DNA from: Octopus sinensis
Taxonomy: Eukaryota
Direction of reading: 5' to 3'
DNA length: 64,000 bases
Assembly: GCF_006345805.1 (NCBI RefSeq)
Contig: NC_043003.1
Location: 806,001 to 870,000 of the forward strand
The position numbers and the translations under genes were made by a program. Shown here in pieces: positions 5,595-45,218 of the stretch (positions are counted from its first letter, which is position 1; the number at the start of each line of letters is the position of its first letter). The notes beneath the pieces are model-generated. The model was not told the origin of the DNA. It made no database searches and saw only the letters and a list, made by a program, of their open reading frames with translations.

Positions 5595-6215
5595 CTTTTC
5601 CATTTTTCCTGAGCATTAAACTAATACACTTGCTTGTTGTTCATACACCTGTCTTCGTCTTGTTTTTCTATAACTTCCAACTACATATATATATATATGT
5701 GTGTGTGTATATGTGCTCATGTGTGTGCCTGCCTGCTTTGACATCATGTGACAGTTGTAAACATGTATCACTGTCATGTACATGATGCTGCTTGTTTCCA
5801 ATCTTTCACAAAAAACATGTTTGGCCATGGGGCACTATCATGCAAGCAGGGTCTTTCATTACCAATCTTCTATGAAAGCATATCTGTTTATGGGGGAACA
5901 TTACCTTATTTGCAAACAGGTGAGTGTTGGCTACATGAAGAGCATCCAGCTGCAGAAATACCTGCTACAACAAATTCCATCTGACCCATGCAAGCAAGGA
6001 AAAGGGGACATTAAAAAGATGAGGATGATGATGATGATGATATGTAAGTGTCACCGCAACAACAGGATTATTAAAGAAATTCAAATTTTGAACTGGGTTA
6101 GCTAAAATGGTTCCCTGTCACTATAGTCCAGTGGTTCCACAGACCCCCGGTGGTCTACAAAAGTAGTACTGGGGGTCTGTGAACTAAATTCAAAATTTCA
6201 CACACACACACACAC

Positions 6216-6271
<56 letters not shown>

Positions 6272-6272
<1 letters not shown>

Positions 6273-6640
6273 GTCGTGGCTCTCTATCGGTTACGACGAC
6301 GGATGTTCTAGTTGATCTGATCAACAGAACAGCTTGCTCGTGAAATTAATGTGCAAGTGGCTGAGTACTCCACAGACACATGTACTCTTAATGTAGTTCT
6401 CAGGGAGAAACAGTGTGACAAGGTTGGCCCTTTGAAATACAGGTACAACAGAAACAGGAAGAAAGAGTGAGAGAAAGTTGTCGTGAAAGAGTACAGCAAG
6501 GTTCACCACCACCTTTGCCAGAGCCTCGTGGAGCTTTATGTGTTTTCGCCCAAACACTCACAGCACCCGGTCTGGGAATTGAAACCGCGACCCTATGATC
6601 ATGAGTCCACTGCCCTAACCACTGGGCATTGTACCTCCAC
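6272..6640 (-). mobile_element. tRNA-derived SINE family R1 (OR1-like), copy 1 of a tandem duplication
   Basis: Minus strand GAGGTACAATGCCCAGTGGTTAGGGCAG...GGTTTCAATTCCC head; tail GTGGAGTACTCAGCCACTTGCAC; homologous to 16427-16750 and 56856-57190. Confidence 0.85.
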
Positions 6641-6657
6641 TGTATATATATATATAT

Positions 6658-6728
<71 letters not shown>

Positions 6729-6729
<1 letters not shown>

Positions 6730-7097
6730 GTCGTGGCTCTCTATCGGTTACGACGACGGATGTTCTAGTTGATCTGATCAACAGAACAGCTTGCTCGTGA
6801 AATTAATGTGCAAGTGGCTGAGTACTCCACAGACACATGTACTCTTAATGTAGTTCTCAGGGAGAAACAGTGTGACAAGGTTGGCCCTTTGAAATACAGG
6901 TACAACAGAAACAGGAAGAAAGAGTGAGAGAAAGTTGTCGTGAAAGAGTACAGCAAGGTTCACCACCACCCCTTGCCAGAGCCTCGTGGAGCTTTATGTG
7001 TTTTCGCCCAAACACTCACAGCACCCGGTCTGGGAATTGAAACCGCGACCCTATGATCATGAGTCCACTGCCCTAACCACTGGGCATTGTACCTCCA

Positions 7098-7100
<3 letters not shown>
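6729..7100 (-). mobile_element. SINE family R1, copy 2 of a tandem duplication (period about 457 bp)
   Basis: Nearly identical to 6272-6640. Confidence 0.85.
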
Positions 7101-7135
<35 letters not shown>

Positions 7136-7271
7136 GTATATATATAAAGAAATAACTGAGATTCAGTTGAATTAGGTACTTAAGTTGAAGCACCAAGTCA
7201 GTCCGGTATTATCCACACAGCATGAAGTTAGGTGAATAAAATCAAAATAAGCAACAGGATATCATGTAGTG

Positions 7272-7359
7272 ATGCAGTATTACCATTTCATGTGGCTCCA
7301 TTTAATTGAACAATGCAATCATTACGTCAGTTTAAATGCAGTGCTATCTTCAGCTGCAC
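7272..7359 (-). ncRNA. Hammerhead-like motif with long stem II
   Basis: Minus strand GTGCAG CTGAAGA tagcactgCATTTAA...TTAAATGgagccacat GAAA tggtaa TA CTGCAT; 6-bp stem I and 7-bp inner stem II pair. Confidence 0.45.
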
Positions 7360-9927
7360 AAATGAATAAATAGAATTTTAACAAGTAGGACACATTAATA
7401 TAATTTTTCTCATATATAATATATATACATAAGGATAAGTATATTAAAAGGGATCTGTGGAAAAACTCATTTAAATAAAAGGGGTCCTCAGTAGTGAAAA
7501 GATTGGGGACCATTGCTATAGTCAAATGGCATATTTTTAGTGTGTCTGAGAAAATAATAATAATTGTGTGAGGTAAAGGGGAAGAGGGGAGTAATTTGTT
7601 TTTTTCTTCCATAACCCATAAAAAATGTTTTGAGCTTAGCATTGCAGACAAATAAAAGGTATTACAATTGTTAGCATGGCTGTGTGGTTAAAGAAGCTTG
7701 CTTTGCAACCACATGGTTTCAGGTTCAGTCCCACTGAGTGGCACATTGAGCAAATGTCTTGTATTTTAGCCCTCGGCCAATTAATGCTTTGTGAGTGAAT
7801 TTGGTAGACGGAAACTATGTGGAAGCCCATCATGTGTGTGTGTATGTGTGTGCATGCGTGTGTGTGGCTATGTGTTTGTCTCTCCTATGCTCCCACACTA
7901 TTTGGCAACTGGTGTTGGTTTGTTTATGTTTCTGTAACAGTTGTTTGACAAAAGAGATGGATACAATAAATAACAAACTTTAAAATAAGTGTGCCCCAAC
8001 ATGGTCGCAGTCCAATGAGTGAAACAAGTAAAAGATAAGGTCAATCAAAAAAAGCAAAAATAAATAAATAAATAGTAAGAGAAAGAATGTGATGGTCACA
8101 TTTGGAACATCTTTGATTACACATCAACAAGATAAAGAGCGACAGAGTTAAACTGGAGCTGACATATTCCACATCACAAAAAGCATAGAAAGAACAGTAA
8201 ATCTTTAGTCTTATAATTGAGATCAGAAGAATCTCTCATTGATAAAAGAAGCTCGAAGGACAGAACTGCGAAATGAGAAAAGGTTAAGAGAGAACAAGGT
8301 CAGCTTAAAGTGATTACAAGGGTTGAACATGACTGATTGAGTAAGAGAGGGAGGGCATGGGAGACGCAGACACATTGGCACAGGCATACGTACAGACACA
8401 CACACACACACACACGCACAGACACACATGCATGCGGGGTTTTAAATTGAAACATGTTTGTATAGTGAAGATGAAGTTTGTGGTTATGCAGTGAAAACGA
8501 TGTTAGTGTGTATATGTTGTCTTTGTGTATATGTATGCATTCATACATAAGCATATAAGCACACATATATACAGTGATATAGATGGATACATCTATATAA
8601 ACATCAATCCATCCCTCTGCCTGCCTGCCCATCTATCTACCTGTTTGTCAATTTAATTACCTACCTATAAATATGCAAACACGTATCTGTCTGTCTACCT
8701 ATCCATTTATCTATCCACGCATACATGAAAAGCAATATACATATACATTCATAGAGCTTGACATCTATACACATACACACACAGACACACTTGTACATAC
8801 ACATATACACTCACCATACAACATATATACAAGTGTGTTTGTGTGTGTTCAAGAACATTCTGTATAACATGTGACCTGACATTTTCATTAAGTGGAACAA
8901 TGGATTTGTGTATGTGTGACTCCCTGCCTGGCTGTTGTTCTCCCATCATGTACACTTATGTATGTATGTGTGTGTGTGTGCGTGCATTGTACCCTGTCCC
9001 CACCCCATAAACGTTTTCAGTTGTAACTGTTTTAATGGAAACCTTTCATCTTAATACAGAGTGAAAGATGCAACTCAGCACCTTATTAAAACCTTAACAC
9101 ATTCTCAAACCATTGACCACGTTTGAATTTGTAGACAAGAATAAAAACGCTGTTTCCATTTTCTTTTTCTTTATTTCATTTCGCAATTATTTCTCGTTAA
9201 CTTTGTCAATGTTCAGCCACCTCATTACATGAAATATGTTAACACAAATTTAATTATTTCTTTATATTTCAGATGGCATTTCTGCGTTATTCATTTCCTA
9301 TGAAATTCTAACGACACAGTCCTCCAGTCACTAGGAACTTGTCAAACCATCAAACACATGCCATCATTTAATGTCCCTTTTCCATGCTGGCATGGGTTGA
9401 ACAATTCAACAGGAGCCAGCAAGTTAAAGGATTGCCTTAAGCTCCAAGATCTGCTTCAGCATGGTTTCTACAGTTGGTTGTCCTTCCTAATGCCAACCAT
9501 TTTACCAAGTGTACTGGGTGCTTTTTACATGATTCTGGCACCAGTGAAGTTACCAAATAACCTGCAAGACAAAACCATCAACTTAACATTAAAAAAAGGA
9601 CGAGATTAGACAATAATAACTCGCCATGGCGTAGCAGACAAGAAGCTGCATGGAATATGATCAGGGACTAAAATCTTACACTACCAGGTGGATTTTGGGT
9701 GAGATCAAGAATAACAGTTCTCAAACAGCAAAATTCCAAGAAGTAATCCCCAGAATATTTGTGAGAATTTTTGCCTTCATGTTTCTTTGATGAATTTCTC
9801 TTTGAGCTGAAGAAATAAAACACCTTTGACCTGGTCAAAAAATGGAAAAGAAAATGGAAACAATGTCTTTATTCTTTTATACAAATCCAAGCCTGATCAA
9901 TGGTTTGATAATGTGCTAGGGTTTTAA

Positions 9928-10530: not shown

Positions 10531-10598
10531 CAATATGGCATAGTGGTTAAGAGCACGGGCTACAAACCCAAGATTACCAGTTTGATTCCAGGCAGTGA

Positions 10599-10658
<60 letters not shown>

Positions 10659-10832
10659 CATTGAAAAATACCTTAGGAATGAGAACCCAGGTTCAAAATT
10701 TCCCCAAGACACCTGATGAAGGCTGGAGGGTATATCAGCCGAAACATTGTGTTAACAACAAACAAGATGAGGACAAATATCCATCAAATGTAAATAATGT
10801 AAATAATTCCTCATTTCTTGAATATAGAACTG
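10531..10832 (+). mobile_element. tRNA-like head + (AAT)n + hammerhead cassette (family A PLE-derived, SINE-like element)
   Basis: A box TGGCATAGTGG 10536-10546, B-box-like GTTTGATTCC 10580-10589, (AAT)n about 10603-10655, HHR 10708-10753; homologous to 28321-28485 and 14834-14948. Confidence 0.7.
10708..10753 (+). ncRNA. Minimal type-I hammerhead ribozyme motif, family A
   Basis: GACAC CTGATGA A GGCTG gagggtatat CAGCC GAAA CA TT GTGTT; stem I GACAC/GUGUU and stem II GGCUG/CAGCC pair; the copy at 14848-14893 keeps CG in the stem III position. Confidence 0.75.
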
Positions 10833-14833: not shown

Positions 14834-14948
14834 GAAATTTCCCCCAAGACACCTGATAAAGGCTGGAGGGTACATCAGCTAAAACGTTGTGTTAACAACA
14901 AACAAGATGAGGACAAATATCCGTCAAATGTAAATAATATGAATAATT
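14834..14948 (+). mobile_element. Family A PLE-derived 3' fragment with degenerate hammerhead (14848-14893)
   Basis: GACAC CTGATAA A GGCTG gagggtacat CAGCT AAAA CG TT GTGTT, followed by the same tail as 10754-10810. Confidence 0.7.
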
Positions 14949-18309: not shown

Positions 18310-18518
18310 CGAGCTGGCAGAAATGTTAACATGCTGGGTGAAATGCTTAGAGGTATGTTGTCTGTCTTTAAGTTCTGAGTTCAAATTCCGCTGAGGTCAA
18401 CTTTGCCTTTCCTCCTTTCAGAGTCAATAAATTATGTACCAGTTGCATACTGGGGTTGATCTAATCAACTGACACCTTCCCCCAAAATTTTAGGCCTTGT
18501 GCTTAGAGTAGAAAAGTA

Positions 18519-19173: not shown

Positions 19174-19410
19174 CGAGCTGGCAGAAATGTTAACATGCTG
19201 GGTGAAATGCTTAGAGGTATGTTGTCTGTCTTTAAGTTCTGAGTTCAAATTCCGCTGAGGTCAACTTTGCCTTTCCTCCTTTCAGAGTCAATAAATTATG
19301 TACCAGTTGCATACTGGGGTTGATCTAATCAACTGACACCTTCCCCCAAAATTTTAGGCCTTGTGCTTAGAGTAGAAAAGTACACACGTACACACACACA
19401 CACACACACA
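17660..19410. repeat. Tandem duplication of an about 870-bp unit (Tigger-like MITE end + Nin-domain SINE), bounded by (CA)n
   Basis: TAAATGTATATACATCTACT at 17681 and 18551; visible differences are mainly homopolymer or microsatellite lengths; internal 47-bp repeats CTGGAAGG... Confidence 0.9.
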
Positions 19411-24470: not shown

Positions 24471-24766
24471 ATTGATCAAAATAAAAACATGATGCCAAGG
24501 ATTCAGCGGTACATATGTTCGGGCCTTTATTAGAAGTTATAACAATGCCTATGTATGTCTGTGGCCTTCTTCAGCGCGCACAACAGCTTCCACAAGGACA
24601 TGTGTTACATCAAAAAGTACTTGTGTACACATGTCCTTGTGGAAGCTGTTGTGCGCAGCTGAAGAAGGCCACAGACATACATTATGCATTGTATAAATCT
24701 GTCTAATAAAGGCCCGAAACATATGTACCGCTGAATCCTTGGCATCATGTTTTTATTTTGATCAAT
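24471..24766. mobile_element. About 296-bp palindrome of two inverted PLE-type ends, each with a family D hammerhead-like motif
   Basis: Arms 24471-24605 and 24627-24766, 21-nt spacer; plus-arm motif GTGCG cag CTGAAGA AGGCC...GGCCC GAAA CA TA TGTAC (24651-24728); third copy 29063-29180. Confidence 0.75.
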
Positions 24767-28156: not shown

Positions 28157-28485
28157 AGTTCTATATGTGGGATGAAGTTAAAATAATAGACAGAGAACAC
28201 CAGTGGAAAATGCAAGAAGCAGCACAGATGTTAGGACACAACAACCTCCTGAGCAGACCGAGTGCAGATATGAACAGCATATGGGAACCGGTATTAAGGA
28301 AGGATAGGAGAATATTACAGGCATATGGCCTAGTGGTTAAGAGCATGGGCTACTAACGCCAAAATTCCGAGTTCGATTCCAATAATAATAACATCGAAAA
28401 ATACCTTAGGTTCGAAATTTCCCCCAAGACACCTGATGAAGGCTGGAGGGTATATCCGACAAATATCCGTCAAATGTAAATAATG
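28157..28485 (+). mobile_element. 5'-truncated Penelope-like retroelement: GIY-YIG endonuclease C-terminus + tRNA-like unit + (AAT)n + partly deleted hammerhead
   Basis: 12-bp TSD CAATCTGAGGAC at 28145-28156 and 28486-28497; translation WDEVKIIDREHQWK..EAAQMLGHNNLLSRPSADMNSIWEPVL resembles the PLE EN tail (WDxVKILDRExxW..KEAxxI..LNR..WxPLL); A box 28326-28336, B box GTTCGATTCC 28371-28380; GACAC CTGATGA A GGCTG at 28428-28445. Confidence 0.75.
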
Positions 28486-28593
28486 CAATCTGAGGACTTT
28501 TTGATAGTCTGGTGCATTTGTATCAGCGGAGAGCTGAAGAAATATTTTGCCCAGATTTCTAATGCCTTATTAACAACCCCTTATGTATATATA

Positions 28594-36033: not shown

Positions 36034-36832
36034 GGATCTTTTCCTTTTGAACAACACTTTGTAACATAATTTCTAGGTAACTAAAAAGTTTTAAACTTTG
36101 TATACTGGTAGAATGTGTTTATAAAACATCGTTTTCTCTTGGCTTTATTGGGAAAATTCTATAGTTTGTAAGATATTTCGCCTGAAATTACTTGCATTTC
36201 GGCAATTTTAACCAATCCATTGACGTAAATAACATTCTGTGCATAATGAATATGTCCCTCCTTTAAGAAACAGATTGGGTTTATTTACATTTGTGAAGAA
36301 AAAAAGATACCCTTCCCCAGCCCCTAACCCTAACTAACCCTAACTAGATTGAAATGCAATAGATCGATACTAGGATTATAATTATGGGTGACAATTTCAT
36401 ACGACACCGCTACGGAAAATGGGATTTTTTTCTAGCAGTGTCAAATGAAAATGTCACCCATAATTATGGCCCTAGTATCGATCTATTGCATTTCAATATA
36501 TTTTAGATTTAGGGTTAGAGTTAGTTAGGGTTAGGGGTGGTGGAAGGGTATATTTTTTCTTCACAAATGTAAATAAACCCAATCTGTTTCTTAAAGGAGG
36601 GACATATTCATTATGCACAGAATGTTATTTACCTAAATGGACTCCAGTGATTGGTTAAAATTGCCGAAATGCAAGTAATTTCAGACGAAATATCTTACAA
36701 ACTATAGAATTTTCTCAATAAAGCCAAGAGAAAATGATGTATTATAAACATATTCTACCAATATACAAAGTTTAAAACTTTTTAGTTACCTAGAAATTAT
36801 GTTACAAAGTGCCGTTCAAAAGGAAAAGATCC
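36034..36832. mobile_element. 799-bp foldback DNA transposon (Merlin-like, non-autonomous) with internal telomere-like TTAGGG repeats
   Basis: GGATCTTTTCCTTTTGAAC...GTTCAAAAGGAAAAGATCC, palindromic over nearly its whole length; perfect 8-bp TSD GAAGTGTT (36026-36033, 36833-36840); GG termini. Confidence 0.85.
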
Positions 36833-43988: not shown

Positions 43989-45218
43989 ATATATATATAT
44001 ATATATAAGATTCGAGTATAAACCTTGTAGGATGCTATGAAAATCTCATCCACAGTTATTCTTTTCTATTCTAGGCACAATGCCCGAATTTTTGGGGAGG
44101 GTTCCAGTCGATTAGATCGACCCCAGTATGCAACTGGTACTTAGTTTATCGTCCCCGAAAAGACGAAAGGCAAAGTTGACCTCGGCGGAATTTGAACTCA
44201 GAACGTAGCGGCAGACGAAATACCTCAAAGAATTTCGCCCGGCGTGCTAACGTTTCTCGGCTACCCGATGTCATCATACGGTGTGAATACTTCTACTGGA
44301 TATAATTCAGGAATTCCACCGTATTTGTACAGTTTATATAAATAGATCAATGATAGAAAATGGAATGATTGACACTCTTCGTTTAAAATCACTACAAGTG
44401 TTTTGACACATTTTGACACCCATAGTATATCGGGGAGATGTATAGTTATTGTCATCCGTCCAACGTTCAAAGTGCACTTCCTCAGGTGATCGTTTAAATA
44501 AGTCTTTCATTAGCTCCCACCGTCATTTCACTCAGTGTGTGTGTGTGGTATGTGCGTCCACCGTCGCTTGGCAATATGTGTTGGTTTGTTTACGTCCTTA
44601 TAACTTAGGGATTCGACCTAAACTCTTTAAAGTGGTGTATTAGGCATGGTTGTAGTCTAATGACTGGAACAAGTAAAAGGTAAAAATAAAAATGGGAATA
44701 AATAAAATGTGAAACCGAAGTTGTGGCATGTCGCGGCACATTTGGTAATAATAAGCATTATGGGTTGGTGCCGCCCATCGTCAGCCTCTCCCCTCGGTTT
44801 TTAGAACTGACTGAAAAGACGGTTAGGGCAACGTACTCAGCAATAACAACAACAACAATTTAATCGTTTCTTGTACTAACACCTACACTGTAGCACTAAC
44901 CTTACCAACCACTCCCGAAACGGTTTCAGCTTTTTTACCTTTGCCATAATTACATCATAATCTTCAACACCACCACCACCACCACCACCACCTCCACCAC
45001 CACCACCACCACCACCACCACCTCCACCACCACCTCACCACCACACCCCACCACCGCCACCGCCACCTCCACCTCCACCCCGCCACCACGCCCACCACCA
45101 CCGCCACCGCCACCTCCACCACTCACCCCCACCACCACACCACCCCGACCACCTACCGCCACCACCACCACCACCTTCCCAACCACCACCACCGCCCACC
45201 ACCGCCACCACCACCACC

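Follow-up and report, generated by a model that had tools for sequence, protein, structure and literature searches.

Coding retrotransposons are usually assigned to RNA polymerase II (Pol II), with RNA polymerase III (Pol III) serving non-coding parasites only, an expectation stated in the part of PMC10886601 covered here; the same text argues that the autonomous partners of TRIMp3 elements need Pol II and are unlikely to have long LTR sequence in common with them. Characterized Penelope-like elements (PLEs) have an internal promoter that overlaps a spliced intron (PMC8557442, in part), which points to Pol II and speaks against the Pol III reading proposed below. In rotifer PLEs, terminal repeats (pLTRs) with 5′ palindromes, self-priming and solo pLTRs have been described, with no mention of a tRNA in the part of PMC3846280 covered, and for PAc (Poseidon_Ac of Anolis) internal priming has been demonstrated in vitro (PMC11167929, in part). 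Taken singly, the ingredients are already known: hammerheads in PLEs, pLTRs in solo and inverted form, tRNA-related repeats with a hammerhead (Sm-alpha), and non-coding LTRs with a Pol III promoter. In the published papers searched, we found no report of a tRNA-headed or Pol III-driven coding PLE, and the octopus tRNA-headed element is not described in the parts of PMC13282606, PMC8967140 and PMC4758252 covered; Repbase, Dfam or SINEBase may already list its short form as a SINE.

Results

The cassette at 10533-10832 and its state

The window analysed here is a stretch of 64,000 nt from Octopus sinensis (GCF_006345805.1, NC_043003.1, positions 806,001-870,000 of the forward strand). An earlier note on this DNA had singled out 10531..10832 as a stand-alone cassette made of a tRNA-like head, an (AAT)n array and a tail with a complete hammerhead, and had proposed that it is a distinct non-autonomous retroposon moved by PLE machinery and combining SINE and retrozyme features. 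Judged by its sequence, the cassette is a solo pLTR of an 835-aa Penelope/Poseidon-type element. Family positions refer to the family majority, whose tRNA-like head has its first G at +1; position 0 is counted, so that -6 lies 7 nt upstream. The features of the cassette and of two other copies in the window are the following.

10533..10832 (+): whole cassette, a solo pLTR of a Penelope/Poseidon-type retrotransposon, by alignment to the last ~265 nt of the family unit
10533..10602 (+): tRNA-derived head, first ~4 nt missing, by alignment to genomic tRNA-Arg(CCG)
10536..10546 (+): A-box-like motif, read from the sequence against the box consensus
10580..10589 (+): B-box-like motif, read in the same way, with a CpG-type C-to-T change relative to the family majority
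10603..10653 (+): (AAT)17 array, the 5′ leader of the ORF; its length differs among copies
10679..10832 (+): 'tail', the first ~51 codons of the RT-endonuclease ORF, with the ATG at 10679
10708..10753 (+): minimal type I hammerhead within the ORF start, fitting the min-HHR description in the part of PMC4209133 covered
10708-10712 paired with 10749-10753 (+): hammerhead stem I
10713-10719 (+): hammerhead core CTGATGA, followed by one unpaired A
10721-10725 paired with 10736-10740 (+): hammerhead stem II
10741-10748 (+): hammerhead segment GAAACATT, with the predicted cut after 10748
10788..10832 (+): region with the family's two preferred 3′ ends (~+241 and ~+268), from the 3′ ends of 74 arms
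14834..14948 (+): short 5′-truncated copy, hammerhead and tail to the first 3′ end; AACGTT intact, core mutated (CTGATAA)
28166..28488 (+): copy with the endonuclease C-terminus, the head and an internally deleted tail

All the parts that had been named are present, and head and tail recur in the 28.3-kb copy as described; homology, however, sets in at 10533, so that about 4 nt of the head are missing. No element sequence occurs in the 3 kb that precede this point, in agreement with the lack of endonuclease coding sequence reported there. The tail of the cassette is coding sequence. The pieces of the hammerhead are likewise in place, but the fold is not intact, because stem III reads AACATT, a palindrome broken by mutation that cannot pair intermolecularly. 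At 14834-14948 (92-93% identical to the cassette) the palindrome was read correctly, but the core is mutated. The C-to-T change is likely to leave the B box of the cassette weak or dead, and the copy itself is decayed and likely inert. No target site duplication was seen by eye at this copy. Since Rfam and ARAGORN make no tRNA or hammerhead call in the cassette or in head-bearing loci, the tRNA head and the hammerhead are recognized by motif and alignment. By analogy to PAc (PMC11167929, in part), 10788..10832 likely holds internal RT start sites of the element.

Other repeats occur in the same window. An inverted repeat at 36034-36217 and 36649-36832 (184 nt, 96% complementary, 431 nt apart) is possibly a MITE or a DNA transposon, and a near-perfect long hairpin with a ~55-bp stem, at 24556-24677, has a weak score to a miRNA model. 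Another interspersed repeat is found three times (18319-18489, 19183-19353 and 44087-44257; 84% alike), its first two copies sitting 864 nt apart, which may be a local duplication.

The autonomous element that carries the cassette

Translation of the sequence 5′ of the 28.3-kb copy gives the terminal part of an ORF, the endonuclease end. Walking upstream from this end reaches the reverse transcriptase (RVT_1, E 9e-9 in a natural piece), and on the other side the tail continues in frame into the ORF N-terminus (L085 and loci L091-L120), the pLTR running into the ORF at L085, L100, L107, L108, L110, L114 and L116. The majority sequence is a 2,649-nt unit with a single 835-aa open frame, which has its ATG after (AAT)n and before the hammerhead; the order of parts is ORF stop, ~30 nt, tRNA-derived head, (AAT)n, ATG, minimal hammerhead and tail. 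The head follows the ORF stop by ~30 nt in 25 of 30 endonuclease-end loci, or in 22 of 27 once three duplicates of one insertion are removed (four of the 30 loci represent one duplicated insertion); two loci end before the head, and in three the head is deleted or shortened.

Relatives of 582-847 aa show 54-68% identity in four of six matches and 33-34% in the remaining two, and P0003 and P0010 retain the peptide encoded by the hammerhead core. A GIY-YIG-like motif is visible by eye after the RT; Pfam makes no call for it in three natural pieces, and the relative P0003 matches PF01541 at no better than E 0.23. The pLTRs, partial tandems, inverted 5′ arms and a 30-40-nt optional tail are all present in the octopus family. 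It is because of the ORF, the RT, the relatives, the 3′ ends resembling RT start sites and the head-after-stop architecture that we assign the cassette to the pLTR of a Penelope/Poseidon-type element, the clade name being a provisional one based on domain order and architecture.

Contigs of X17-X20, which bear four other species labels, cover the ORF start, tail, head and endonuclease end; no listed X17-X20 contig bridges the endonuclease-head junction (31-letter rule), and the same architecture is likely in these species. DNA of the relatives was found neither in metagenome contigs (one spurious 18-aa match) nor in viral contigs. In the 2.72-Gb octopus genome, one 20-mer of the tail occurs 11,524 times versus 0 for the reversed control, so the tail repeat is not a product of chance, and insertions are present in 10 of 120 evenly spaced 10-kb stretches, a small sample that corresponds to roughly 20,000 genome-wide.

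In 4-5 of 30 loci (L092, L094, L097, L114 and possibly L106), a new pLTR piece is joined directly to the ORF start 230-265 nt past the tail, each junction being different. This is possibly a further RT start or template-jump zone, its position being biased because the query demanded ~200 nt there. We also observed a two-codon upstream ORF (ATG GCG TAG) at +6..+14 of the family head, which overlaps the A box and precedes the main ATG.

Copies begin at the head and end at two coding positions

The ends of copies were scored in the first 74 of 100 tail matches listed (of 11,524), which come from a single 24-Mb stretch of contig C1; some of these arms have an insertion in common. Among the matches listed, 23 arms begin at +101..+195, 17 in the triplet array, five in the head body, 20 at -12..+9 and nine further upstream. 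Hence 20 of the 29 arms that reach the head start end at -12..+9, a hazard of 0.047 per nt versus 0.002-0.004 elsewhere (binomial P 9e-16), which bears out the possibility raised in the earlier note that 5′ ends fall at the tRNA head beyond what random truncation predicts. Consistently, among 30 loci with the head pattern (+3..+22), ~8 of which overlap the arm set, 23 start at -6..+3, seven run through the spacer (five by script, with L273 and L282 reclassified by eye) and none stops between. Genome-wide 20-mer counts are 858 at ~-190, 896 at -28..-9 and 4,523 at +3..+22, where the pattern admits four CpG variants; about six in ten are exact among the matches listed, and the exact form still exceeds the spacer count ~3-fold. 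The clustering of 5′ ends at the head start, hereafter the wall, is real. The 3′ ends of the 74 arms gather at ~+241 and ~+268, and these two fixed ends, together with the inverted 5′ arms, sustain the view that PLE machinery moves the copies.

The 17 arms that begin within (AAT)n arrays, often the tails of other repeats (loci including L257, L263, L308, L313, L328, L330, L336 and L338), are a separate matter. They suggest that the element targets or anneals to AAT microsatellites, and the array 5′ ends may include insertions into pre-existing microsatellites.

Two kinds of RNA cleavage were weighed as the origin of the 5′ ends. Cleavage by the hammerhead was rejected: only 5 of 74 arms begin at +175..+186, which is near background. 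Alternatively, RNase P or a different nuclease could cleave a long Pol II transcript where the tRNA-like head lies, the 3′ product serving as template. Several arms do begin at +1, as such a cut would have them, yet many copies retain 6-7 nt upstream of +1 and stop there, the cloverleaf is lost (tRNA finders reject the fold), and the terminator deficit described below would be left unexplained, so that we consider this origin very improbable.

No sign of a separate non-autonomous family

Identity to the majority is 91.5% in 44 ORF-linked and 92.9% in 41 head-start alignments. A putative subfamily marker at +249 (8/25 versus 0/24) proved to be a product of the first query, being found in 1/40 of the unbiased loci, and after removal of query-biased loci no diagnostic differences remain between head-start and ORF-linked copies. 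Head-start copies may also be long: L107, L110 and L114 go 230-430 nt further than the tail and enter the ORF, which implies that not all RNAs beginning at the head are short.

A separate Pol III SINE or retrozyme, non-autonomous, with master copies of its own and PLE enzymes acting in trans, would fit the predominance of short copies, the ORF being reached by 0 of 10 insertion loci (in the 120 stretches of 10 kb) and by 9 of 74 arms. Besides, some secondary amplification is plausible, since solo copies whose boxes are intact have the RT start sites and could serve as transcription templates. Yet sequence and age match those of the autonomous pLTR, the +249 marker has vanished, three copies start at the head and still enter the ORF, and neither tandem arrays (in 190 loci) nor an end pile-up at the hammerhead cut site (in 74 arms) was seen; such a family is therefore improbable. 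The distinct retroposon of the earlier note gives way here, because the whole cassette, terminal repeat and ORF start, belongs to the autonomous unit and diagnostic sites are lacking. The short copies are best seen, on alignment evidence, as products of the autonomous element.

The retrozyme features proposed earlier did not materialize either. Among 50 hammerhead cores in 190 loci, one direct pair was found versus eight inverted ones, and no head-to-tail tandem arrays of the retrozyme type were seen. Stem II and AACGTT are retained in 11 of 44 cores, and a dimer stem III is predicted at -4.1 kcal/mol for the majority type, with none for the 10533-10832 copy. The hammerhead is the usual minimal motif of PLEs, is predicted to need dimer formation or protein help, and does not set the ends of copies. 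As for other classes, the cassette has the tRNA-related 5′ head with A and B boxes of a SINE but not the simple-repeat or A-rich 3′ end, its AAT repeat being internal and its 3′ ends lying at two fixed coding positions. Nor is it a non-coding LTR element with PBS and PPT, as TRIMp3 elements are, since the repeat flanks a PLE-type RT ORF.

The tRNA-derived head as a candidate promoter

The near-majority head is identical to genomic tRNA-Arg(CCG) at 48 of 74 positions (z 7.5), and the head of the 10533-10832 copy shows 42 identities to the same tRNA (z 5.8). Arg(CCG) is only one of several candidate isotypes, as tRNA-Cys and Arg(TCT) are nearly as good among 25 genomic tRNAs of six amino-acid types, in which the Arg anticodon types are incomplete. 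An apparently intact tRNA-Arg(CCG) gene, at L009:2213-2287 on the minus strand, lies ~500 nt from an insertion of the pLTR family. By the box consensus, the A box lies at +8 and the B box at ~+53, which is the spacing of a tRNA. The upstream limit of the 5′-end wall falls ~13 nt before the A box, which we take to be a plausible Pol III start distance. The head likely acts as a Pol III promoter, possibly for the whole element.

A hairpin at the wall complicates this picture. It has 4-5 bp (-4.6 to -5.4 kcal/mol), ranks in the top 1% of 2,629 windows and is used by fold-back junctions; hammerhead stem II is a stronger hairpin, yet shows no comparable pile-up of 5′ ends. A hairpin exactly at the wall would suit an ordinary, Pol II-made PLE in which a SINE or tRNA fragment landed as a passenger at the 5′ end of the pLTR, the wall being a Pol II start or a self-priming palindrome. 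The 5′ palindromes, self-priming and solo pLTRs in the part of PMC3846280 covered favour the same account, and because these are described there without a tRNA, the 5′ wall alone does not require Pol III. Against a passenger head, however, the wall stands at its distance from an intact A box with the B box at tRNA spacing, and an RT travelling along a longer RNA would be expected to halt before the hairpin, whereas the copies extend through it to the far side.

Terminator deficit and transcripts

Runs of at least four T (T4), which act as Pol III terminators, number 0 in the sense strand of the 2,649-nt unit versus 30 in the antisense strand. The P value of this absence depends on the null: 0.0011 with the protein kept and third bases redrawn, 0.044 with codons shuffled, and 0.007, 0.073 and 0.227 under Markov orders 0-2, the higher of which absorb the TT/TTT deficit itself. 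Natural copies of the family contain 23 T4 runs in 90.3 kb (0.25 per kb), with no position common to more than two copies, and 21 pieces of the tRNA-headed family contain six in 16.0 kb (observed/expected 0.12). For comparison, 24 other retroelement ORFs of the same genome contain 66 in 28.0 kb (2.4 per kb; observed/expected 0.86); these controls are 24 of 46 long frames, picked by Pfam matches to retroelement-type domains, and three short ones have no T4. At the control rates, the probability of no T4 in the unit is 0.002-0.008. Other PLE-like pieces of the genome have seven T4 runs in 1.8 kb. The absence of T4 is suggestive only, because the family counts as one sequence; a unit without a terminator could let a Pol III RNA traverse the whole ORF. 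T4 runs were also seen in pieces of other PLE-like families (L150, L160, L161 and L179; 26-35% identity to P0003).

RNA-seq runs X21-X23, three runs from one study with another species label, place 5,880-8,805 reads per run on the element, with both strands about equal. Depth over the head is only slightly above that over the endonuclease, 64-68% of the reads continue into other sequence, and in the ~6% of each run covered there is no pile-up of transcript starts or ends. Read-through may dominate the library, which is possibly unstranded, and the 150-nt reads map poorly beside the AAT array.

RNA-seq without a visible Pol III start, and the P of 0.07-0.23 for the T4 absence under Markov nulls, agree with a passenger fragment on a Pol II-made PLE, but a T4 deficit absent from other retroelements and other PLE pieces of the same genome speaks against that account; overall, we consider it unlikely.

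Discussion

Our preferred reading, to which we give a probability of roughly 0.6, is that Pol III transcription begins immediately 5′ of the head and that the enzyme encoded by the element, through internal priming, copies the first ~270 nt of this RNA. Pol III would start near -6 and, from the sequence evidence, probably sets the 5′ end of the copies. The RT-endonuclease would bind the ORF-start region and prime within the RNA, at ~+241 or ~+268 of one or the other pLTR copy. Priming at the 5′ copy of the site would lead to run-off after ~270 nt, yielding a solo cassette, and the small hairpin at the template end would allow the cDNA to fold back, yielding head-to-head palindromes. In its fullest form, the Pol III RNA would read through the whole ORF.

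Production of the coding RNA by Pol III is a more tentative proposal, to which we assign somewhat less than even odds. Equally tentative is the complete picture of an autonomous coding retrotransposon that would be transcribed by Pol III end to end from a captured tRNA promoter, with 2.6 kb purged of terminators, cap-less translation and ~20,000 SINE-like copies of its own 5′ end; the translation of an uncapped Pol III RNA, which it leaves unexplained, counts against it. If true, an autonomous Penelope element that combines a tRNA promoter with an ORF free of terminators would defy the division of labour between Pol II and Pol III, would reveal one way for a coding element to give rise to SINE-like repeats in cis, and would offer a natural test case for the translation of uncapped Pol III RNA. 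If Pol III is unused, the element is an ordinary PLE with a captured piece of tRNA. Thousands of repeats in the octopus group, likely labelled SINEs by annotation pipelines, are PLE ends.

Among described systems, PAc of the Penelope/Poseidon clade is especially close. Like the octopus element, PAc has a single RT-endonuclease ORF whose start is overlapped by a hammerhead, a 'tail' that results from two internal RT start sites separated by ~30 nt, partial tandems and AT-rich targets, whereas no tRNA-derived head or Pol III promoter is described for it in the part of PMC11167929 covered. The minimal hammerheads of metazoan PLEs (PMC4209133, in part) resemble the octopus one in the short helix I, the extra base between A9 and G10.1, G10.1-C11.1 and the palindromic 15.2-16.2, and their copies are likewise mostly solo or in opposite-strand pairs 100-700 bp apart; unlike in the octopus case, the word 'tRNA' is absent from the main text. 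Penelope of Adineta vaga (PMC3846280, in part) similarly has ~200-bp pLTRs with 5′ palindromes, inverted and solo pLTRs and ORFs of 830-842 aa, but no tRNA head ('tRNA' has 0 occurrences in PMC3846280).

Other systems approach the octopus element from the non-coding side. Sm-alpha and Sj-alpha of schistosomes (PMC2770079, in part) are short, tRNA-related hammerhead repeats with tens of thousands of copies; they differ in being non-coding, in having a canonical rather than minimal hammerhead (PMC4209133, in part) and in that no link to PLE terminal repeats is described in the part of PMC2770079 covered. Non-LTR retrozymes (PMC7229834 and bioRxiv 10.64898/2026.07.22.740005, both in part) are ~300 nt long, bear hammerheads and have a proposed origin from PLE pLTRs, yet they form head-to-tail tandems and circular RNA, whereas in the octopus the copies occur singly or inverted, with ends that bear no relation to the cut site. 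Finally, TRIMp3 elements (Cassandra, Helenus and Ajax; PMC10886601, in part) also carry a Pol III promoter derived from a small RNA within a terminal repeat, but they are non-autonomous LTR elements, whereas the octopus head sits on the coding element itself.
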